From the NCBI GenBank assembly GCA_965649765.1, contig OZ287754.1:11966001-12030000 (forward strand): 64,000 bases of DNA, written 5' to 3'. This DNA comes from Bispira polyomma. Lineage: Eukaryota. Of the stretch, positions 37,851 through 59,959 are shown piece by piece. Both the position numbers and the translations under genes were made by a program. Each line of letters starts with the position of its first letter. Position 1 is the stretch's first letter. The notes beneath the pieces are model-generated. The model ran no database searches and was not told where the DNA came from. It saw only the letters and a list, made by a program, of their open reading frames with translations.

Positions 37851-40049
37851 CTGAAAGAGCTGCAAATATTTTGATCATACAATTTATATTGAGGTGCTTG
37901 AAGTATGACTAATTAAGCTTCCAGTGAGTGCTACTGCGTGGATCTCTTAATTCCCTAACAATTATCCTATCACATATTGCAGGTCAGCTATTCCTCTGTA
38001 TTAGAAGCTGTCATCTACAATGGTGTGATGGAGCATTTCCAGAAAGTATTCTGTCATATCCCTGAGCACACCATGCCATACATAGTGAGCATTGCATTGA
38101 CCAACAATGACCAAGATTACTCAGAGCCTCAGCCTTTACTGGTCTACCATAGCACCTGCTGGCACTGTAGTCTGGAAAGTGGCTGTGACAAGAAGGTAGG
38201 AAAAATGTTACAAAGAAAAAACGTACATTTTCCTACTCTTTTATGCTAAAATACATTTTCTACGCTATCAACATTTTATTTTCTGAACAAAATCTTGATA
38301 TCTCAACCAGTTTAGATAATAGAGGTACTACTGCATAGGTTATATAGCTAGTTGAAAGGTCTTCAGCTATTTTGCTACTTGTTTCTATGCTTTAAGTAAA
38401 TTTGAGTTTGAAATAGTAATTGTAACATCTTGTTTAGCTTCTAATGGAATGTGTTTGAAGCATACATTTTCAGTTTTATTTTGAATTTTCTTCAATAATT
38501 TGTGTATTTAATAAACATGATAGATCATTGCTAATTTAATACTACTTATATTGCTTATTACACTTGGTACATTATTGTAAACTGTGACATTGAGTAAATG
38601 GGTGAAATGTTGTTAATCAGCTAATGCTGTTTTTGTGCATCACTTATTTTACTAATACAACACCTTATCTTTAACATAATGATTTTACGACAGTTTAAGA
38701 CAATTGTGATTGAACATTGCATTGTATTTGATAGAAATCATCCTGTGTCATCAACACTGACTGTGTCGCAGCAGGAGAAAGCAATCCAAGTAATGTTGAA
38801 GAACACTGTGACCCTGAACTGGATGAATATGGGTGGTCTGCAGGTACAACCCTTGAAACTTTAGCACAGTTCTATTAACAAGTTATATTGTGTGTTTGAT
38901 TCTTGAGTGTTCAGTCACATTTAAGTTTCTAGTAGAGCATTATTAAGGAATCTGATTTGGTTAGTGTAAAACGTAAAACGCGGCTGTGCATATGGCTGTT
39001 CATTTAAAAAAAATCTTTTATTTTCATTCTACCAGGTTTTCTTACTATCTAAGGGTATTCACAAAAACTACCCTACTACAATCAACTTGATGGTAGGGTA
39101 AATTGTATTTTACTGTATTATACTGTTTTAACACACCCTATTGTTGTGCGGTGTCTTCTAAAGTGTAATATCAGAATCAGTTAATAGGGAAGTCCAAAAA
39201 CATAGTCATGTATGGTTTTTAATCGCACCATTAACCTAATCCTCTTTATTTTTATTTTCCAAAGTTCCAACTGAAACAACAAGTTCAGGAAAACTCAACC
39301 AAGAAGCAATAATTAGTATAGCCATTGCAGCTGCAATTGTCATTATCGCAGTGATTGTGATAATTGCAGTTGTTTGTAAACATAACAGGTGAGTAGTGAC
39401 AATTAACATAGTATGTAATTTATGTATATGTCACAATAGAATCTCAGGTACAAAATGTCTGAGCCTTATTTGAAATGACAGAATAATGAGTTGATCATTG
39501 CTGAAACTCTAATTTTGAAATGACACTATATTCCATTCAAGTAATGTATTGTTATGAAAGAAATATAAGATACACATCTAACATGAGTACCTTTAACATG
39601 TGGCTTGCAGTATAATTTATAAATAAATACTGTGCATCTCATATTTACAATACTTTAAATTATGGTATTCTATATTTACATCAGTAAGAAGGCTGAAAGA
39701 GTCACCTCTGAATTAGACCTTGGAAAAAGTCTGCACAACAGGACCCTTTAGGGGCCTGATACTTCAGTCCACTTACAAACCTTTTAACTTTCATCACAAC
39801 CTTAATTTCGGTTATACCAACAATATATGTAGCTATTTACTGGGCTACTAGCCAATCACAGCCCACACACTTGTTGTTTAGGCTTCACTTTCCAAATCAC
39901 CATTTTGAATCTACATTCAAGCTATAGAATTTAAAGCAACAACAAGTGAAAAATATTTTATGAAATAAATGAATTGTATTTATGTGATTTTATTATTTTA
40001 ACTTGGTTTTTATGACACATTGTGTGCTACATATTGTGAATCAATCGAC

Positions 40050-41435
40050 ATGGGTCGTACTAAGAAAACGCCCACACACAGCTCAGTTAAAAAATCGACC
40101 AAGAAACCACTTACAGCAAGAAAGACAAAGGAAAGGCAAGTAGTTGATTCTCTCGTCTTGGACCTCGACGGTCAATTATCACAGGTAGCGGGCCCCTCTA
40201 GTACTGACAATTCTTTTCAACAGATAAATAGCGATGCCTCGCCAATGATGGCGACTCGGGGGCCCCTACTTAGGCCGGGTTCCGACACAACCAGCAGCCA
40301 GAATTCTGACCAAATGCTTGCCATTCTCATGAGGCTTGAAGCTTCTAACGCCGACTTAGCTGGCCGTTTGCAGAAAGTAGAGCAACAGGCATCGACTAAC
40401 GCATCCATGTTACCTACCCCATCCCTCCTCAGGACGGGTCACACACCGGCCATCGGGCAGATGGGAACTACAGCTTCACTTAACGTGCAGGGTACATCTG
40501 CATACAACCAACCTGCTACAGGCCACCACGGTCAGATCGCTGCCGGCTCACTACCACAGACGGGTTATCCTCCTCAACAACCAGCACAGTGCAACGCTGC
40601 GTTCGCGCTTCCCACTCAGTCAGGTAATATTGCATCAGCTTATATGCAGAACGCTAGACCAGACATCCCCGTAGCAACACACACGGGCTATGCGGGTCAC
40701 GATTACCAACGAGACGGGATCGTACCGAATCTAGATGCTTTAAGAACCTTACCTCACGTCCAGGCGGAAGTTACCAGACAGCTTGCTCAGTATTCAGCAC
40801 TTGCACAGCGAGATATAACACAAGGTAAGGCATCTCTTAAGCATAAATCGGGACGGTTCAATAACACAGACGTCACTTCCATGGATCCCAGGCTAAGGTG
40901 GCCTAACGAAGGGTGGGTAGGGGGTTCTTCAAAGAAGAAGCCAACGTTCGATGAACTCACACTGCCGCAGTGGGCTGCAGGGCAGCTCGCTAACGCGCTA
41001 TTAGTACCTAACCCTGCTGAAATGAAGGACATGGTAAGACAAATAGTATCAGCACTCAGAGATGCTTCATCTCTTCCGTGGCACGTTGTCAGGACAGCCT
41101 GGGCTCTCAGTATGCACGAGGTTGAGGAGGGCCGGCTGTCCTGGCAGAACGACACCCAATAGTCACTGAATAGGCTCAATGCTTCACAGGTAGCCATGGT
41201 CAACAGTGCAAACGTAGGTATTAGCAACAGCAATTATAGCAACGATTCTAAACTTATTTGTAAGTTATATAACAATGGTAAATGTACCCACAAGTCAGAT
41301 CACGACAAATACAAACACATCTGTTGGCATTGTAGCCGAACCCTGGGGAAGGACTCCAACCACCCCGAGTTCAAGTGTTACAGATCCAACAGTAAACAGC
41401 TGGACACTCAGGTAAACCAAGGAAAGCAAAGCTAG
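40050..41435 (+). pseudogene. gag: Gag-like ORF1 of element 1 with C-terminal Cys/His zinc fingers; one internal TAG
   Basis: Starts MGRTKKTP. Contains WPNEGW..PTFDELTLPQWAAGQ and CKLYNNGKC...H...HICWHC...H...C. TAG at 41160-41162 sits where element 2 has Trp. Confidence 0.8.
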
Positions 41436-44169
41436 GTAATTCTTCAACAACCAGGAGAACGAACTATAGTTAAAGATAATTGCAAAGTAGAAATAAGAGA
41501 TGAGCATGATAGTAACATTAAAATTGTAAAAGGTGAGCTTAAATCTAATGGTGTTGATAATATACTGTGTTATGGTAATGAGAACAATGAACATATTAAT
41601 GGAAATGAGAACATAATGCAAAACAATGTGAACAAAATGTACTCTAGTAATTTCACAAATGTTTCAAATGAGAGCATGATGACGGAGTACAACTGTATAT
41701 CAGAGCATTATGACTTATTTTTGTATGACAGTGTGCAATCCAGATGCAGTGGAAGTAAAATGCAGTACTGCAACAGCGAGTTAGCTGGTTATGTTAATTC
41801 CCAATACTATGATGGTAATTCTAAAGAAAGAGAAAGTAAAAATCAGATAGAAGTAACAGTCACTGTCACCAATTGGCAACATTTTTGTAAAAAATGGTCC
41901 GTTTGGGCTCCAATAATATTCTTAAACTGTAGCTGCAATGAAATTGAAGGGTTTTACTACATATACCATCATAGTGGGGACAATGAAATGAAATACATGC
42001 CTGTGTTTAATATACCTCAAGGAGATCTGCAGGTCATACACAGATATGTCACAGCCATATATTATGATCTCACAGATAGATGCAAAAAATTACTAAGTAA
42101 GGTTAATCAGTGTAATGCTGAGGATATTGAACAGGCAGCCAATGTTTTCGACAATTTCAGTAAAGATGAAAAGTGTTACAAACAGTATGGCTGCGACTAT
42201 TCTGAATATATAATGAATATTATTGATATTATGTGTGATGATAACTGGAAAGTAGATGACAATGCAAGCAGTGCAGACAAATTCAATGTAAATACTGCAG
42301 CTGGACACGAGACTCCAAGGAGTGTGCCCTGCGATGAAATATACACATGTCCGATTCGCAATTTCTTCTTCAAAACTGATGGGGTCAATGCTGGCACCAG
42401 TAAGAACATTAAGAAAAATTGTCATATCGCCCAATCAGGAAAATCAGTGGGATTTATTCCATTATCTTCCACAAAATTTCAGTCTATTGGTCCTGATCAG
42501 GAGCCAGTAAAAGTTAATTCAGTCGGTAAAATGGAAAAAATTGCTGCTATAGTTAGAGGCACGAATCTCCCTAATTATAGGCAGGCTAGAATTCCTTTAA
42601 TTTCGGGATTACACCACACAGCGTGGGAGGAAATGCTTACTGACTATTCGGATCAGCTATTAATACAATATATAAAATTCGGGTTTCCTATATCTCTCAC
42701 AGAACCAGGGAAACTAAATAATTCAAAAACTGCCAACCATTACTCTGCTTTGCAATTTACGAAAGAAGTCGGGCAATATCTTGAGAAAGAAAAGTCAATG
42801 GGGGCGATGTTAGGCCCAGTTAAGCAAGTGAACTCACCACACTATCACTGCTCACCCCTTTTAACCAGACCCAAAGACACAGACAAACGTAGGGTCATTT
42901 TAAATCTTTCTTATCCACTGGGGCAGTCACTAAACGAGAATGTAGACAAAGCACTGTTCGATGGGGTCAAATTCATATTAAAATTTCCTACTATTGACGA
43001 CATCACAGAGGCGATTCGGAATACTCATGATCCAGTGCTGTTCAAGATCGACGTGGCCCGAGCGTTCCATAACTTGAGAGTTGATCCAGCTGACGCACTG
43101 AAACTAGGCATACAATTCGCTGAAGGGCAGTACATTGACTCTGCGGTCGCGTTCGGGTGGATACACGGAAGCGCGGCTTTTCAGCGTTGTTCCGATGCCA
43201 TAGCAGCCTATATGTCGGAACGCGGGTTTAGAGTATTTTGCTACATCAATGACTACATATGTGTATGTACTAGAATTAAGGCTGACAAGGGTTTCCGTAT
43301 TTTGAAAGATTTATTGCTTAGGCTAGGTTTCCCAATTAACGATGATAAGCTTACACCTCCCACAACTCGCCTTACATGCCCAGGCATAGACTTTGATATT
43401 ACTGCCGGCACTATTAGCATACAGGAAGAAAAACTTATAAGCATAATTAAAATGGTAAATGACACCTCTCAAAAATTGCACATTTCACGTACTCAGTTTC
43501 AATCTTTATTAGGAAAATTATTATATGTTCACAAGTGCGTGAAACCTGCCAGAACTTTCATAAATAGATTACTTCAAGGTTTCAGAAGTGATCACAATGC
43601 TAAAAAATTCAAAAATTTTTCTGAAATGCGCCATGACATCGACTGGTTTCAAAAATTCTTACCTCAATATAACGGGATATCATACATTAACCATAGGGAC
43701 ATTTCCCATATGGACGAGTTACATCTGGACGCCTGCCTATCAGGTTTAGGAGGTGTCTGGAACAAAGAAGTGTACACCATATTATAATGTTTATCAAAAA
43801 GAGCTTACCATAGTGCATATAGAGATGCTGAACATTGTCCTGGCTTTAAAAATTTGGGGTGAAAAATGGGCTCACAGTAGACTAATAATTCACTGTGACA
43901 ACATGGCCGTCGTACTGGTTGTTGAAAGTCAGAAGACGAAAGACGAATTTCTAGCATTATGCTTAAGGAACATTTGGCTACTTATAGCCACATATGACAT
44001 TAATATTAGCATTAAGTACATTCCAGGCAAGGAAAACATAATAGCAGATGCCCTTTCTAGAATTTATTGCAAAACTCCTCCCAGCAGGGACATGTTATAT
44101 AATTTATACAACAATTATGTTTGGAATCCAGTACTCATACAACATTTTGACCTAGATTTTTTAATATAA
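41436..44169 (+). pseudogene. pol: Pol of element 1: long N-terminal extension, reverse transcriptase, RNase H
   Basis: RT motifs SPLLTRPK..RRVILNLS, KIDVARAF, AFGW..GSAAFQR, YINDY (YIDD degenerate). RNase H motifs LDAC, EMLN, HCDN, NIIADALSR. Frameshift near 43780. Confidence 0.9.
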
Positions 44170-44175
44170 TTACAG

Positions 44176-45152
44176 GTGCTACTGCCATTACTCAGAAACT
44201 CATCACTTCAGCATGTGGAAGGATTGACACAGCACTTAGACCAAAGACTTCTTCTGCTTACGAAAATCAATTTAAAACTTTCCTGGCTTTTAATGAATTT
44301 GCAGGCATTTCAAATACTTCGGTTCATTCAGTACTGGCTTTTTTGGAATATTTGACACAAAATAACATTTCCCCTGCTGCGGTGTCAAACTACCTTTCTG
44401 CTCTAAAATTCATGGCTAGAAAGTTCAATTGGGATTTAGCTCCATTCAATCACAATTCTGTTGCATTATTCGTCAGAAGTATTACAATTAATTCACTATT
44501 CCGTCCCAGACACAAGGGATTGTTTGATATCGCACAGCTAGCACAGATTTCCATAGCATGTTCTATTCTAGATGACCCAATATTATACAGATCAATATTT
44601 ATGGTGGCCTATTTTGCTTTTTTGAGATTATCCAATATTGCCCCTCACTCAAGGGCCACATTTGATAGATCTAGGCATTTTCTCAGACAGGACTTAATTT
44701 TTGGACATCCTGGGGCTCACATCATCCTAAAATGGGCAAAAAATTTGCAAAATAGGACAGATACACATATAATACAAATTCCAAAACTACAAAATAAGAC
44801 TATTTGTCCAGTATTGGCATTGCAAACCTTACTAGCTTCCAGGCCCCTTCCTCCTGCTGCACCACTTTTTGCAGTAGCTGGTACACCACATCACACCATA
44901 GTACAAACACATGTAAGGACAGCTCTGGAAAAAGTCTTGACACACATTGGAATACAATATTCTTCACATGGATTCCATACTTTCAGACGTTCTGGAGCTT
45001 CATTTGCATTTAATCATAATGTATCCCTACAGAATATAATGGCCCACGGGCTTTGGAGATCATCTTCAGTTTGGGCTTACCTCCCAAAAACCTCCCAGGC
45101 AGCATCAGTCGTGCCTCATACCTTTGCCTCTTCCATTCCTTCTTCTCTCTAG
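44176..45152 (+). CDS. Tyrosine recombinase of element 1 (no ATG before the conserved N-terminal region; probably a spliced exon)
   Basis: Catalytic set intact: FLRLSN (R), KWAKN (K), HTFRR (HxxR), HGLW, VWAY (Y). Frame open from 44151. TTACAG acceptor ends at 44175. Confidence 0.88.
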
Positions 45153-47022
45153 TTGGGCTTGGGGCTTAAAATTTTCTGAATTTTAACCATTTTTACACTT
45201 GTTTCTCTGTACATATACCATTAACATGTATATATAAAATAAAGCTCAAACTGAACCGTTTTATTTACTTACACAAAACATCACACTTGACTTAAAATCC
45301 ATTACTTAACATCTTGAACCCAACTTACACCTTATAACTTAAGTGGACTGATCCCATTGGACCAAAGGTGGGGTTTATTTAAATTAATATATTTTCATTT
45401 GAAGCAAAGTTTAACACAATTTTAGTATTCTGTAGTCAAATAGAAAAATTAAATTAACATTTACAATAAATACCATCACTGGTTCACAATAACTAACTTA
45501 ATGATAACCATCAATTTAAGTTGGTTTGTGTGGAAAGTCTAAAAAATTACTTGTAAAGGCATTAAAAATAATATCAAAATTGCTTCATTTGGTAAATACC
45601 AAGAATTTTGTAACATTGTAAAACGGCATTGTGTTATCTTTATTCTTGAAATTTGTTTGAGAAACTATCTTCACATTTCTATCATTGCAACAAAGATGCT
45701 GAGGAAAACTTCTGCTACACAAAGTACTTAAGTAACTGGCCACAACTTCCTATGCTTTGCCTTTGTTTCTGCATTATACCTTATATTATTGTTTGGCAAA
45801 CATATTGTATATATAAAGTTCTCAGTAGGAGACAGTAGTAATTTATAAAAAAAATACTAAATATACTGATGATATGAAGTTTTCAAGTATGTATTCCGAC
45901 TATTAATAAATAGTAATTTATACAATATTTAGTCCCTGGAAGATAATCAGAATGGGATTCCTCCAGCAATGGCCCAGGTTGACTTCAAAACGATGAACCT
46001 GTACCCAGATGTGACGCCAAATAACAGACTAGCACCTCTCATACCCAAAGTCACAATGGTGAGGCCAGCAGATGACACTTGGGATCACTACAGCCCTGCA
46101 GCACTCCAGGTGGATACTCTACCCGATGATGCCAAAGTGTAGGCACATGAAGGAATGCTATGGGAATATGAACACCTTATTAACATTTTAAGCATAGATT
46201 TGGATAACTGAGCTATTCAAATATTTATTGCTGTGAATGTATTTAAGTGAAGAGAATTAATTATCAAAACAATTTCCATGGTATATAGAACTAAATGATG
46301 ATTCCAATAGTTTATCCTTTAATGGCTCTTAACTGAATAGCTATTTAAACCAAACAGCTGTAATTTTAAAGCAAATAATGGGGGCTGTATCTAAATATCT
46401 TTTGTTAAAAATAATTTGTTCCAATCTGATAATTTATAGAACATGTGAAGAGGCTAAAAATTATGCCGATTTGACGAGGAAACTGTGTAATTTTGAAAGC
46501 TAGTCTTTTCATTACTACTCTGTTCTCCCCTTTTCTTCACTTTGTTTTTTATAATACTTTTTCTTGGTGTTAAGGTTTGTGTATGTTTGCATAATAATGT
46601 TATTTTATAGTAATGAATTTAATATGTTGTATTATATGGATGTTTGTTGTCTGACATATTTGAGGCATGTGAGAAATTTCTACTTTTACCCTAACTGGTA
46701 ATATGGTTGCTTGAGAACTAACCACTGAATGTAGAAAAACAGTTAATGAAAGAGTAAATATTCAATGCTCAATCATATACATAATATGTTTATACAAACT
46801 GACTGGTATCTAGGGTTTACTGAGGGTACTATTATAATATTTTGCAGTATTAACTACTCAATTAAAACACATTAATAACCAAAGTCAGAGGCTTGACGAA
46901 GAGCATTTATAAATAGTCCCCAAAGTCTTTTTGGGCAGATAACGTCCATATCAATAATTACTTTAATAGGTTAAAACTGTCTGACATTTAACTTATTACA
47001 AGAGCTTGCTGATCCACAAAGA

Positions 47023-47278
47023 AGGGGTCGTGGTGGTCTAGTGGTTAGAAAGCATTGCGCTTCACAATCACTGGTCTCTCACCTCTGGGTGGCGTGAGTT
47101 CGAATCCCGTCGATGCCTATGTGGGAAAGGTGGTAGTTCCTTACTGTGGGTCGCTGGTTTCTCTGCAGAACCTTGACTGTATGCAGTGTTTCCTCCAGCG
47201 TTTTCAACTACCCATACCAATATAACCTACTAAAAAAGGTACTACAGTGGACGTTAAATATCCAAATTAAAAAAATCC
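47023..47278 (+). mobile_element. tRNA-derived SINE (family 1)
   Basis: A box TGGTCTAGTGG, B box GTTCGAATC. 12-bp TSD GATCCACAAAGA at 47011-47022 and 47279-47290. Confidence 0.92.
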
Positions 47279-52905: not shown

Positions 52906-55900
52906 TTGGTTCATATGGAGGTGTGGAGCCAACAAATAATGGGTAAGTATCTGAGAGTGGCCTGGAGGTCAAAAGCTGCTGTAAAGCCTTAACTGGGCAG
53001 AGGTTTTTGTTTACTAATAAAGGGATTTGTATTATGTGTACTTCCACCCTGCTTTATAAGTTCTTTGCCCATTTAAGTATCACATTGGCGCCTGGTGGGC
53101 CAAAGATGACGGCTTTTCTTAACAAGTGACGTGTGTTATCAAATTGGGCTCTAGAGTTGGGAGCTATGTTTGAAATTCTAAGAAAGCCAAAGAATGAAAG
53201 GAGAAAGATTGCTCTATATAGTATGGGATCAGTTAATGTGTTGCAAGCTCTGGAGATAAATGCTAGGTGGTGTATTTCAAATGTTCCTTTTGGTCGAGGT
53301 TTGAAGAGTGAATTGTGGGTCAAGCTTCTTAAAAACATGGCCACAGTGTAATTCTCAAAAATATGTATATTCCAGGAATATTTCCTTGCCATAAACTTAA
53401 TGGCTGCTAAGTAGTTGTTAATGGCCCCTGTGGAGGTGCCATACTGTGCTGAGTATTCTAGGAAAGCTATGACCACGTGTGTGGTTACAATCTAAATGCC
53501 AGCAAACACATTGAAGGCAAGAAAAGTCTTAAACTGATTATTGCAAGCTGCAAGTGGTTTTGGTCTTAAAGCAGTGTTCAGTCTACTCCAGGCTGACTCC
53601 ATTAATGCTTGTGTGGCCTGTATTGACCCTGAAATTACATGATAATGTTAAAGTTAAAAAAGTGAAGTGGGATATGGTGCCACACAAACTCTTGTTTTAA
53701 CAGTATATTTCTTTCATTATCCGAATAATGGTCAGAGTATATTCTGGACAGTGCATCCGCTATACAATTTTTTTCACCCTTAATGTGGTCAATCTGTAAG
53801 TTAATGTCATATTGTGCTGAAATCAGCCATATATTTCTAAGACACAGGGCTAGGAATTCATCCTTAGTTCTGTTGGAGCCAATGACTAGTACCACAGCCA
53901 TGTTGTCACAGTATATCCTAATTGTACTATGCGACCACTGTTTGCCCCAGAGTTTAAGTGCTATTAAAATATTGAGCATCTCGATGTGTATAATGGAAAT
54001 TTGGCGATCATATACATTGTAGAGGGGGGAGGCGTAAACCTGGCTGTTGAAGATACCCCTACACCTGTTAAGCATGCGTCAATGTAAACAATGTTAGTTT
54101 CAAGGTCAAACTTCTCAATGTATGTAAATCCATTGTACTGCTTAAGAAATATGACAAACCATGCAATCTCATCCTTCATGGCATCTGTGATTTTGAATCC
54201 TGTCCCCTGTGAGTTACCTTCGAAAGGCCATGAGAAGTCTGTTTATGAAAGCCCTAGCAGGTTTAACGCAATTGTGGATGTTCAAAAGTTTGTCTAATAA
54301 AGACTGGAATTTGGCACGACATATCCATTGCTTGTTAACAATTTCCACACACAACTTGTGAGTATCCTCAATCTTGTCTTGAGTTATACTGATTGTGCCC
54401 TCAGCAATGTCTGTGTCTATGCCCAAGCAAGTTACTCTGGTATCCGGAGTTGAGAGTTTGTCTCCATTGATAGGGAGACCTAAAAAATCAACTAATTGAT
54501 ATAAATCTTGAAATGCTTTCTCAGCTGTATCACTACGTGATATACCGACATAATTGTCAATATAACAGAATACCTTTTGGTTTAATTTTCCCATGGCATA
54601 AGCTATCATGTCGGAGCATCTCTGGAAAGTTGCCGAGCCGTGGACCCAGCGACCGCTGGATCCACGTACTTTTCACCTTCAAAACATATGCCTAGTTTAA
54701 GTGCATCAACGGGGTCAACCCGCAAATTTCGAAACGCCCGGGAGACGTCCAACCTAAATATTCTGGCGTCCTTGGTTTATTTTTTTGACTATGTCATCAA
54801 TGGTAGGAAACTTAAGTACAAACTGGATGTTGTCAAATAATTGCTTGTTGACATTATCGTTAACCGATTTTCCCTGTGGGTATGACAAGTTGAGTATAAC
54901 CCGGCATTTGTTTAGGTCCTTTGAGTGAGGAGGGGCGAACGGTGATATAAATTGCTATGTACCTCCTTAACTGGGCCCAACATGGCACCATTGGCTTTTT
55001 TTTCTCAGGGTATTGACTAATTGCGCCTTTGAATTGTAAGGCTGAATGATGATTGGTGGCCTCCCCTGTATTTAGTGAAGTAGGGTCATCCAAAGACAGG
55101 GGGAAACCAAATTTCAAGTACTGGAGTAATTTGTCTGGGTGATCCATTAAAATTTTTTCCCATTGATCAATGTTCAAACTAGATTTAAGTGGAATGCTTG
55201 CCCCGCTATAATTTGGGCACCCCGAGTCCCTAATAATGTTTGCTATACTGACTATTTGATCAATAGATGAACTTAAAACAGGAGCCCTGTCTTGGCCTGC
55301 GAAAGTGAAATTGGTGTCAGATAACACCATGAATCCCTTATTTTTGTCAGGTAAGTTAATATCAGTGACATTCTTGTTTCTGAAATGGTAAGCCGTGTTA
55401 GTTTCTGAGCAGTCGGTAGGCGGCGTCAAGACATTATTCTGTGTGCTATCCACACTTGATACATTTGTGTTAATTACTGACTGATCAATCATTTCTAAAT
55501 GACTGTCATCATTGCCACCCAACATTTGGTCAATTAAATCTGTCATATAATCAGTATAACTACACTCATATTTGTTAAGTGACAGAATGTTTTTTTGCTG
55601 ATCTGTCAATACTTCCTTTGGTGACATGTCACCTACAGTAACTGTCTCAACAATAGAGCTAACAGATTCCAGGTCACCATAAATGTGTGCAATATACACA
55701 TAAGTTTGGATAGTTTGTATTATCGAAATGGGGCCCTCAGGTAAAAAGTCACATTTTAAATAGTCATATCTCTGACTAGTGGCATTTGATTTTGGAATGA
55801 AGAAACCTGTTATTTCCCCATTAATAGATCTGATGTAAATCAAAGGCAACATTTCTTGAGAATCTGGAAAACAATATGACCAATTTGTCACCTGAATTGT

Positions 55901-57064
55901 CACATCACACATGTTAGTGATATAACCCAAATCTCAGCTAACATGTGTTCTTGCCTTACTTGGTAGGGCATTCATGATTACATTATTATTATACAATTTA
56001 AATTTTCTATTTTCACACTTGGTGCTGGATTTTTTGTCCAGCTGGTTATTGGCAGACTTATGGTCCACCCACAACTTATAAACACAATTAGTTTATGATT
56101 TCTCTGTCACATTTAAGTCATTTATAGTGGCTGTACTGCCATTAAGTTTTGTTCTCTTTATATTACTGTCCTTTCCATTACTAGCAAGATCTAAAGCTAA
56201 TACATTATTAATGTCATTATTACTCTCATCACTTGAAACATTCAAAACATTACAATGCCTTTCCAATGTTCATTCAACTAGTTGTGGGTTACTGGCCTAG
56301 TTGCTGGTTGTTTTACTTTCCTGTTGTTTGGAAGAGTTAGCCCTATAGCACTTGAATTTTGGGTGGAGTGATTCCTTGTGCAGAACAGTGGAATAGTGCC
56401 AACATATGTGTTGGTATTGGCCGTGATCCAACTTGTTGGTGCATTTGCCAGCGTTGAACAGTTTGCAGATATTTCTGGCCAATTGTGGTTTGTATGAGCC
56501 GTGGGAGTTGTGCGCGGGTTGGCCATAGCCATCTGTGCAGCGTTCATCTGGCTGAGAGCCCACTGTGTTATGTTGCCCCATTGTAGCCTGCCTTCTTCGA
56601 CTTCATGCATGTTATGCGACCATGATGTTCTTACTACGTTCCACGAGAAAGAAGCGGCGTCCCTTAATGACAAAATAACCTGTTGGACAATTTTCCGTGA
56701 TGTTTCCGAATCAGTAACCTGCATGGCACTGGACAGCTGGCCGGCTGCCCATTGCAGAAGTGATAATTCATCAAATGTGGGACGCTTTCGAGCTGTTCCA
56801 CCCACCCAGCCTTCGTTGGGCCATCTGATTTTCGGATCAGCAGTTGATATGTCGGTAGTATTGAAACACGCTGATTTTTGTCTGATTGGCTTACCTTGTG
56901 AAAGGGTATGTTGCGCCTGGGTCTCGTACTCAGCCAGCCTTTAGTTGATGAGCACCTGGACTTCAGGGATGGATTTTAAAATGTCTATCTTGGGGACAAT
57001 GGCATCCTTGGAGTAGTCCACATGTTGGAACAAACGCGCCTGTGACTGTAGTATGAGTGTTGGA

Positions 57065-57321
57065 TTTGAATTTGAATTTGGGTATTTAACATCCACTCTA
57101 GTACCTTTTAGTAGGTTATATTGGGACGGGTAGTTGGAAACGCTGGAGGAAACACTGCATACAGTCGGTCAAGGTTCTGCAGAGAAACCAGCGGCCCACA
57201 GTAAGGAACTACCACCTTTCCCACATAGGCATCGACGGGATTCGAACTCACGCCGCCCAGAGGTGAGAGACCAGTGATTGTGAAGCGCAGTGCTTGCTAA
57301 CCACTAGGCCACCGCGGCCCC
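57065..57321 (-). mobile_element. tRNA-derived SINE (family 1), full length, nested in gag of element 2
   Basis: Starts GGGGCCGCGGTGGCCTAGTGG. 14-bp TSD GTATGAGTG(T/C)TGGA at 57051-57064 and 57322-57335. Highly similar to the 2671-2914 copy. Confidence 0.93.
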
Positions 57322-57897
57322 GTATGAGTGCTGGAGCAGCAGCTAGAGGTATGTATGGGGCCGTTGTAGCTGGCCTGTTTTTTGTAGAGATCTTGGCTGG
57401 GTGACACAACGGGAGTCGACTGGGACATTTCGCGTGCTTCCATCCTGTCCAGCCTTCGGTTAATCACCTCGTTGGACTCTAATTTCTCAAACATTTCCAT
57501 GATGGCTGGCATTACATTGGTTTCGGTTTGTATCGAGGACGAAGCTGCTCCGTGAGCCATAAGAGGGTGTGTGTGACTAGCCGTAGCCGTAGAGAAACTC
57601 AATGAGTAGCATTCTCTGGGTATAATGGCAAATGAAAATTATTTAGTACACTGTCGTTTACCTGTCCTTGAGTGATTTTCTTCTTTGACGATTTTACACA
57701 AACACTGCTTTTCTTGGATGTCCTTGTTTTAACACAGGCCTCATCAGAAGGCGTCTTCTTAGGTTTCCCCATTCTCTAAATAATAGTCTAGATAAAATAC
57801 TAAAACGTTGCTCCACTAAAAGCCAATATTAAAATCACTAACAAGAGTAAATAGTCCATAAAATAACAGGAAACAACTTGGATTTCCTATTTCCATG

Positions 57898-58074
57898 TTT
57901 TCCTGTGTGTGTGCTTCAATGTCGAAAAGCTTAATGACAAATTTGAGGGAGGAAAATGCATTGTAGAGTTAAACAAAGAACTGACTGAATGTATGGCTGG
58001 ATAGACAGAGCGAAATAAGTCAGCTCAGTCGCCAGGAGTTAACGTGGTTGATAAGATTTGAAGCACTGGGGCAA
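57898..58074 (-). repeat. Repeat A1 of element 2
   Basis: Matches 52731-52905 and lies upstream of the gag ATG. Confidence 0.85.
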
Positions 58075-59959
58075 GTGAAGCACCAGACCCCTCTGTGGTC
58101 GTGACATCTAAACTTCATAGATATAAGTTTGAAGTCTATCTTTTAGAGTCGTGGTTATATGGATTTTTGTTACCAGATGCAAATATAAACATACAATCCA
58201 TCTATTAGGAGGCAGACTTTATATTAAACTGCTAGTGTCCCATTTTTCCAGTCTAATCACAAGTTTAATCACAGATCTTGGCTCATTTTCATTGACTTAA
58301 AAAAAGTTTAGCAGATCCACGTGGAAAAATAAAATGGATTTCGAGAACCATCAACTGTGGGTACCTAGTAAGGTAAACCAAAAGCAAAATTAAAATTTGA
58401 AATATCTATGCATAAACAACAGAATCACCTTCAAAAAAATTCTACAATGTATTTTTCACATAATTTTGCTTTAAAACTTGATAAAAACAATTTTTTACAG
58501 CTCTCGAAATGACCTAATAATTTATTTTCTAATTTAAAAATTTTCAGCTGTTATAGCTTGCACAACATCCGAAATTAGTGAACCACTAGTTAGCGGTCAA
58601 ATCGATTACATTTTTGACTTTTGACTTGGGATAACCGCCAAAAAACAAATATAGGCTAATATATAGTATGTACGCCAAGCATTATAATGTACACATATAT
58701 GTTTAATTGCTATTTTCGGGGAGTTCTGTGAAGTTCTGTTAATTGCTTCCTCAACTTACAGAGACAAGTTCAATTTCTATTTTCGAGATGTTCTGTTATT
58801 TGCTTCATTCCAGGTTATATATTGGTAGACATAAGATAATATTTTACTAAAAGAACCATATACATAAAATTTTAAGGGGACCCGATCTATAAGATTGGTA
58901 CTTAATGATCGGGAACCCGATACATTACACTTTTTCTTTTCCCTTTTCTTTTTATATACAGATTTAAAGAATTTGTTTTTATCTCCCACTGATGATGGAC
59001 CCTTGCAACATAAAACAACTTTTGTCAGTTTTGTGATTAGATATATTATGTTAATGAGAACGGTAACCTGAATAGCATTCTCTGCTCTTCGGTGTTAATA
59101 ATGATGTCATTTGTCTGGTCATATGCTATAAAATTGCTATCTCGTAAATTTTGCGTCTTCGTGAAAATAAATTAGCAAGAGGGTATCAATCATGTCACTG
59201 CGCATCCTCAGAAGATCACGTGTCGACACTCTGTACTCTACTTTCATTCACAAAAATATCCACCAATGAAACAGCTGATAAGATTAATCAATTTATTCTC
59301 ATTAAGACGGAACATTGACTAAAAGCCCTGAACAAGTGAATGATGTTACAGTCTAAAACTGGCCCAGAGACTTATCTGTTTGTGTGTTAAATGGCTGAAA
59401 ATGGCTGGTGCTCCGTTAATTGTAACACAAATTTACAAACAGTGCCACTTTGAAACAGACCCAACATGTATGCCAAATATGAAAGCTGAGGTCCTTGTAA
59501 GTTCTGAGATTACTTTGTCCCAATTGTGTAATCATCTGCAACCACCTCATTCCACACCCTATAATCCCCCCTTACATAATAACATATTTGGTGGGGATTC
59601 CCTACTTAATTTTAAAATGTATAATTGTGGTAGTATTGTTATATATTTGAGGGTATTTCTTTAGTTATTCTTGTTTTTCTACATTAGAAACTCTAGTACT
59701 GTTATTTGACTGATACGGTACATATTCATTGTTTTCTTTATGTACTAAAGCATGCATGTGCAAACATTTATATACTTCTATCTCTGTACTTGTTATTTTG
59801 TAGTACATTATATGCTGTGAAACTGGAGAATTAAAAACTAAAGATTGAAACAGTGAATATCTTTTTCTGACAACGTTTTGGTAAAGCAATTATAATGATA
59901 TCCTAACTGATATCAAATGATAATTGTTTGTGCTTACATTATTGTTAAAGTTATATTTG

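Follow-up and report, generated by a model that had tools for sequence, protein, structure and literature searches.

Ngaro retrotransposons, as portrayed in the available text of the papers that describe them (PMC8547959, PMC9210276, PMC3783388 and PMC4157794, with a fit also in PMC3266345 and PMC13465315), carry gag, reverse transcriptase/RNase H (RT/RH) and tyrosine recombinase (YR) genes on one strand, lack a methyltransferase (MT) and have split direct repeats in the order A1...B1 A2 B2. The three genes are given there as separate or overlapping open reading frames (ORFs) with no expression mechanism, and the available portions of the literature searched do not explain how the second and third genes of YR retrotransposons are expressed. 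Here, we analyzed a 64,000-nucleotide (nt) stretch of the Bispira polyomma genome (contig OZ287754.1, positions 11,966,001 to 12,030,000; hereafter the window), which holds two copies of a Ngaro-like element, element 1 on the forward strand and element 2 on the reverse strand. This element shares the traits listed above and differs from the described Ngaro elements by an in-frame gag stop, a predicted splice that joins the N-terminal part of Gag to YR (GagN-YR) and a non-coding spacer of 0.5–1.1 kb between A2 and B2. Judging from patterns of conservation, the element likely yields three proteins from one start codon, namely, Gag, Gag-Pol and GagN-YR.

In the proposed scheme, Gag would result from normal termination at a UAG-G stop, Gag-Pol from occasional readthrough of that stop aided by a long-range RNA helix, and the GagN-recombinase fusion from removal of a 3.35-kb intron, which would take out the gag stop along with both arms of the helix. 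The Gag-YR splice very probably happens and, with the same confidence, the gag stop is read through; stimulation of readthrough by the helix is a somewhat less secure, yet still probable, part of the scheme. The relevant parts of element 1 are as follows (window positions).

39732–39963 (+): split direct repeat A1 at the 5′ end, beginning with TG and matching the two A copies found in a full-length relative
40050–40824 (+): predicted coding exon 1, the N-terminal 258 aa of Gag, with a basic N-terminus, a helix at 82–118 and a conserved helix at 228–257
40050–41435 (+): gag
40822–40830 (+): predicted splice donor AAG/GTAAGG, phase 1, at invariant Gly259, cut at 40824/40825
40825–44175 (+): predicted intron of 3351 nt, which contains the Gag core, the zinc finger and all of pol
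41160–41162 (+): premature TAG in gag, a lesion within the predicted intron
41433–41436 (+): TAG-G at the end of gag, with pol in the same frame; predicted readthrough site
41436–44169 (+): pol, with N-terminal region, RT and RNase H, broken in this copy (Pfam RVT_1, E 1.5e-8; RVT_3, E 1.5e-5)
41443–41454 (+): proximal arm of the long-range helix predicted in the RNA, with 12/12 Watson-Crick pairs to 43915–43926
43915–43926 (+): distal arm of the same helix (predicted), within RNase H codons L-V-V-E
44147–44151 (+): branch-point-like TTGAC, with its A at −26
44170–44176 (+): predicted splice acceptor TTACAG/G, directly 3′ of the pol stop
44176–45152 (+): predicted exon 2, a complete Cre-like YR without an ATG of its own
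45161–45350 (+): split direct repeat B, ending with TG and with AATAAA at 45238; A2, the spacer and the second B are missing here

A sequence-only reading of the window had proposed that the recombinase is made as a spliced Gag-YR fusion, and a recheck of the sequence agreed with the observations behind it. Both gags carry a CAAG/GTAAG donor (40824/40825 and 56895/56894), and an acceptor directly follows each pol stop (TAA-TTACAG/GT, ending at 44175, and TAA-TTTCAG/GG, with the AG at 53630–53629). In element 1, the YR frame stays open for only 8 codons above the acceptor and has no Met until 78 codons into the exon, as had been noted of the missing early ATG. Joining 40050–40824 (775 nt, donor phase 1) to 44176–45152 gives, on recomputation, a phase-matched and uninterrupted frame of 1752 nt, encoding 583 aa and one terminal stop, in which the full catalytic set is found (LRLSN, LKW, HTFR, AHG and WAY). 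The premature gag TAG, an RT motif reading YIND in place of YIDD and a pol frameshift near 43750–43787 all lie inside the predicted intron, so that the splice would indeed skip every lesion of this copy.

Many copies of the element are present in the 1.035-Gb genome, and conservation was examined in 162 of them, comprising 80 of 123, 40 of 150 and 40 of 122 best-scoring matches, hand-picked with a spread of identity favored, together with the two elements of the window. Single linkage at 88% on YR DNA sorted these into 49 families, with YR identities of 36–100%; the first 122 copies alone formed 31 families that are 53–85% identical to each other. More distant comparisons came from seven metagenome loci, three of which (foreign contigs L151, L154 and L156, 32–39% identity) extend into gag.

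A phase-matched acceptor precedes YR in 153/162 copies (47/49 families), and a phase-1 donor is found in gag in 131 of the 147 copies with a gag anchor (42/46 families), whereas control windows did not exceed 0.45 and 0.37 of families, respectively. Matches fell into the three phases at 153:10:1 for the acceptor and 132:18:4 for the donor, and the 40 later-added copies gave similar counts by themselves (acceptor 38/40, donor 31/37). The acceptor follows a TTNYAG/G pattern, positions −6, −5, −2 and −1 being T, T, A and G as the family majority in 31/31. The codon preceding the cut is NYA in 48/48 families yet encodes S, T, V, L, I, A or P, and such fixation across seven residues is the reverse of what protein constraint would produce; the codon that follows is Gly in 46 families and Asp in 2. 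At the donor, Gly is GGT in 29/29 families and Lys is AAG in 28/28, compared with at most 66% for any one codon in 30 other conserved Gly columns and at most 0.89, with none fixed, in 24 other Lys columns. The comparison with synonymous sites proposed in the sequence-only reading thus found GGT-AAG and the post-stop YAG invariant, with variation at all the other conserved Gly and Lys codons. The donor is also the sole conserved GTRAG among 3156 aligned positions outside the variable, unalignable gag N-terminus, where the runner-up reached 8/30. Distant families retain it while the preceding residue varies (Q, S, H or K), and all three foreign contigs reaching gag have G/GTAA at the invariant Gly259. 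Upstream of YR, a phase-matched YAG was found in 6/6 foreign loci examined; in L154, it lies ~250 nt beyond the pol stop, with no frame overlap. A YTRAY motif with its A at −26 occurs in 26/48 families, a count confounded by coding, since the RNase H codons F-D/N also explain it. Taken together, conservation supports the earlier splice interpretation.

The second part of the scheme concerns the gag stop. Among 86 copies (32 families) with the gag core open to its end, the stop context is TAGG in 75, TGAC in 3 and another in 8, and an open run of at least 100 codons follows in the pol frame (frame 0) in 53/86 copies, against 0 and 5 in the other two frames. Pol has no conserved Met, the first one occurring anywhere from codon 1 to 270, and one family has a 3-nt insertion immediately after the stop. 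In the foreign contigs, a single in-frame TGA parts gag and pol in 3/3. UAG-G and UGA-C are known leaky stop contexts, according to the part of PMC13517186 available. At UAG-G, the stop agrees with the type III readthrough signal (UAGGGV, UAGGUA or UAGGAU); element 1 has UAGGUA, and other families have different bases at +5/+6. No conserved local hairpin was found after the gag stop. Use of the gag stop TAG/G as a splice acceptor was rejected, since the sequence upstream of it is A-rich and the site is out of phase with the donor. Stops of pol are TAA in 39/48 families.

Downstream of the gag stop lies a motif in which third codon positions are conserved while the residues vary. It forms one arm of a predicted helix of 10–13 bp that starts at nt +11/+12 of the stop and whose partner is a set of RNase H codons 2.3–2.8 kb downstream. 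A first distal anchor at the WGxxW codons gave a null covariation test (p 0.33), and the site from a whole-element duplex scan was then used, in which the best duplex fell at one homologous RNase H site in 21/28 families. Arms of the same family pair at −20.9 kcal/mol versus −12.1 across families (0 of 100,000 permutations). In 20 families aligned in one register, 92.9% of cells are paired compared with 17–54% in slid controls, and the arms covary, with double changes in 7/12 columns and 24 shared changes on the tree versus 0–9 in controls. Several points weigh against this helix. Against the nearest neighbor, own-family pairing in 28 families was better in 18, equal in 2 and worse in 8. The register came from one family, and 8/28 families were excluded in advance from the counts of cells, four with a bulged pairing at the same site (−20 to −32), three without a duplex and one mis-mapped. 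The helix is absent from two UGA-C families and from one further family (L181), is weak in element 2 (−8.6) and is not clear in the foreign contigs.

The rival that fares best accepts the helix and gives it another task, such as packaging, reverse transcription or the control of splicing, the last by looping out the bulk of the intron. The predicted intron does contain both arms, one 600 nt away from the donor and the other 250 nt short of the acceptor, and an in-frame stop is retained in families that lack the helix. We nevertheless consider this reading unlikely, as the helix sits at a fixed +11/+12 from the stop, the distance at which the pseudoknot stimulator of Moloney murine leukemia virus (MoMLV) starts (PMC13517186, in the part available), and the helix-bearing families have UAG-G, a context said to need downstream structure, while the two UGA-C families have no helix.

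With regard to the recombinase, two rivals to the Gag-YR splice have to be weighed, each of them very improbable. In the first, ribosomes would slip into the −1 frame close to the pol stop and so make a Pol-YR fusion, the AG/GT conservation being incidental. Relative to pol, YR is in the −1 frame in 40/48 families, where the two overlap briefly, and an in-phase slippery heptamer occurs in 8/48, namely, element 1 (T TTT TTA, shortly 5′ of the pol stop) and seven others; the available text of PMC3783388 likewise calls the YR ORF frameshifted and overlapping. However, 40/48 families have no heptamer, the overlap is at most 6 nt in 8, YR lies in other frames in 8, and L154 has no overlap. Frameshifting would also leave unexplained both the invariant GGT-AAG 3.3 kb upstream and the fixed third-position A of the acceptor.

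In the second, YR would be translated alone from an internal AUG, by reinitiation, leaky scanning or an internal promoter, and the acceptor might serve a non-coding leader. An in-frame Met does occur between the acceptor and RPxT in 18/48 families, mostly at exon codon 9, as in element 2, and upstream of the acceptor in 8/48; several foreign gene calls begin with M-I-S-G, maybe from alternative start codons. Yet no Met precedes the YR core in 30/48 families or in 11/14 fully open copies, the position in question is mid-helix (H3-18) and also takes I, V, L, T and S, and the only conserved donor follows the gag ATG, with which it is in phase. Stop-start AUGA coupling was separately rejected, an upstream Met being limited to those eight families. 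Neither an ATG (18/48 families) nor a slippery site (8/48) is conserved before the YR core, the two signals that the sequence-only reading had named as fatal to a spliced fusion. The least probable rival, in which Pol would be spliced as well, from the gag donor to a weak in-frame YAG at +19 to +21 past the gag stop, draws on a YAG with G at +21 in 25/29 families, in phase 1, and founders on the missing pyrimidine tract, the loss of that G in 4 families, the unexplained fixed UAG-G and an A-for-G change for which the distal arm compensates, which explains the YAG motif as a helix arm.

Along with the overlaps, heptamers and Met codons just described, other observations count against the proposed expression scheme. 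Families are related by descent, so their counts are not independent. Foreign donors are weaker (GTAAT and GTAAA), and YR stops, like those of gag, are mostly TAG (31/39 families). Spliced DNA copies, looked for in the element-1 family only, were not found among the best 40 of 89 and best 40 of 223 candidates, and a further search gave 0 matches. No annotated Gag-YR fusion was found in the protein collection, where the matches are unnamed gene calls from assemblies and one longer match is an RT-RH-YR deletion fusion.

The element is assigned as a Ngaro-like YR retrotransposon by its architecture, which refines the DIRS-order label of the sequence-only reading; structure alone can mislead as a classifier, and MT-less PAT derivatives exist (PMC4157794, in the text available). 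Full copies have the order A1-gag-pol-YR-B1-A2-spacer-B2, with YR encoded downstream of RT/RNase H on the same strand and the internal repeats 3′ of YR, and element 1 retains A1 and one B only. Inverted repeats of the DIRS1-like type were absent (0 pairs in 4/4 copies checked). No MT family, as expected of DIRS1-like or PAT-like elements, was detected in pol at E 0.1, and pol terminates ~40 residues past the RNase H ADALSR motif. The gene order of gag, RT/RH and YR differs from the VIPER-like order of gag, YR and RT/RH (PMC6681497, available part). The ~330 residues of pol before RT (41436–42400 in the window) have no Pfam match and vary in length between families. The YR stop coincides with the start of repeat B. 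The spacer between A2 and B2 is non-coding and measures ~0.5–1.1 kb (L031:7007–7765 and homologous spacers); in the one spacer translated, no long ORF, including any SGNH hydrolase, was found. Three copies (L036, L038 and L044) and element 1 (45161–45350) end after a single B, with A2, the spacer and one B lost, as recombination between B1 and B2 would predict. In L033 and L037, a further A repeat follows, resembling tandem or circle-junction insertions. Element 1 itself is inserted in a coding exon of a host gene for a single-pass membrane protein (39265–39389, 39685–39731, 45351–45367 and 45933–46142, +); without it, the exon phases fit both neighbors, and no target-site duplication is present.

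Element 2 is more decayed, its YR having no C-terminal catalytic part, and contributes the following features.

57894–58110 (−): repeat A1
56890–56897 (−): donor AAG/GTAAG, cut at 56895/56894
56296–56299 (−): gag stop TAG-G, with pol in the same frame
53628–53634 (−): acceptor TTTCAG/G, with the AG at 53630–53629
52909–53628 (−): YR remnant with stops, its C-terminal part deleted and a Met at exon codon 9

Its gag is broken by a 260-nt insertion resembling a short interspersed nuclear element (SINE), with a tRNA-like head (57071–57330, −), in which ARAGORN called no tRNA; a second SINE-like copy, 90–95% identical, lies 10 kb off (47015–47272, +).

The predicted product of exon 2 has a Cre-like fold from end to end (Foldseek, E 1.3e-7, with 323 columns across 322 residues). 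In a structure model of Gag (pTM 0.40), the donor is placed after the conserved helix and before a low-confidence linker. This fold had no PDB match at E 0.001, and an Atlas search gave one lead only, at 0.76; the label Gag rests on position and on the C-terminal Cys/His finger. In distant families (L161, L163, L168, L186, L193, L194, L151, L154 and L156), Gag begins with a CxxC...H.RPVG..C motif, which the predicted fusion with YR would then include; members of the element-1 group carry Lys/Arg-rich sequence at that place.

We speculate that removal of the helix arms by splicing would confine Pol synthesis to full-length RNA, and that GagN may guide YR to its targets or carry it into the nucleus or the particle. 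If the scheme is true, the real recombinase would be a Gag fusion ~260 residues longer than annotated, which matters to assays of eukaryotic Cre-like enzymes. Goodwin and Poulter (2004) reportedly mention, in their abstract, spliceosomal introns in some YR elements, and a prior mention is therefore possible. In the available portions of the literature searched (PMC7192593, PMC6681497, PMC8547959 and its preprint, PMC3266345, PMC4157794, PMC9210276, PMC13465315, PMC5009743, PMC12440569 and PMC5890265), none of the three features, the Gag-YR splice, gag-pol readthrough and a helix of this kind, was found described for YR retrotransposons. More broadly, and with slightly less than even confidence, we suggest that a single-AUG, three-way program may extend through a broad clade of Ngaro elements, with the helix licensing readthrough only on unspliced, full-length RNA, a conserved splice deleting that helix and GagN setting packaging or target choice. 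Such a role of GagN in targeting would directly explain why ORF1 loss accompanies altered integration-site preference in the Ngaro elements of Cafeteria (PMC8547959, as far as the available text goes).

With respect to known enzymes, the predicted exon 2 product shares the whole two-domain fold of Cre recombinase (PDB 1crx and 4crx, TM 0.66–0.68), with only 15–16% identity and a predicted 258-aa Gag extension. Retroviral env is reached by splicing out pol, to which the predicted YR splice can be likened. The env-like strategy suggested in the sequence-only reading holds in that a third gene would be reached by splicing out pol; the analogy is partial because the downstream exon would be fused in frame to 258 Gag residues rather than read as a separate protein. 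Here, the spliced gene also encodes the integration enzyme, in contrast to gammaretroviruses, and would be fused to half of Gag. Gammaretroviruses such as MoMLV likewise have gag and pol in a single frame separated by UAG-G, followed by a stimulator that begins at nt +12; it is a local pseudoknot there and would be a helix of 2.5-kb range here (PMC13517186 and PMC4178896, available parts). In the tombusvirus carnation Italian ringspot virus (CIRV), a 3.5-kb RNA-RNA pairing drives readthrough (PMC3234231, available part), and the element shares with it a UAG-G stop combined with multi-kilobase pairing. CIRV is an RNA virus whose partner sequence lies in a 3′ replication element, in contrast to a retrotransposon whose partner lies within RNase H codons; the helix, if the scheme is right, would give a retrotransposon a readthrough stimulator of multi-kilobase range, a kind otherwise found described, in the sources as available, only for plant RNA viruses.

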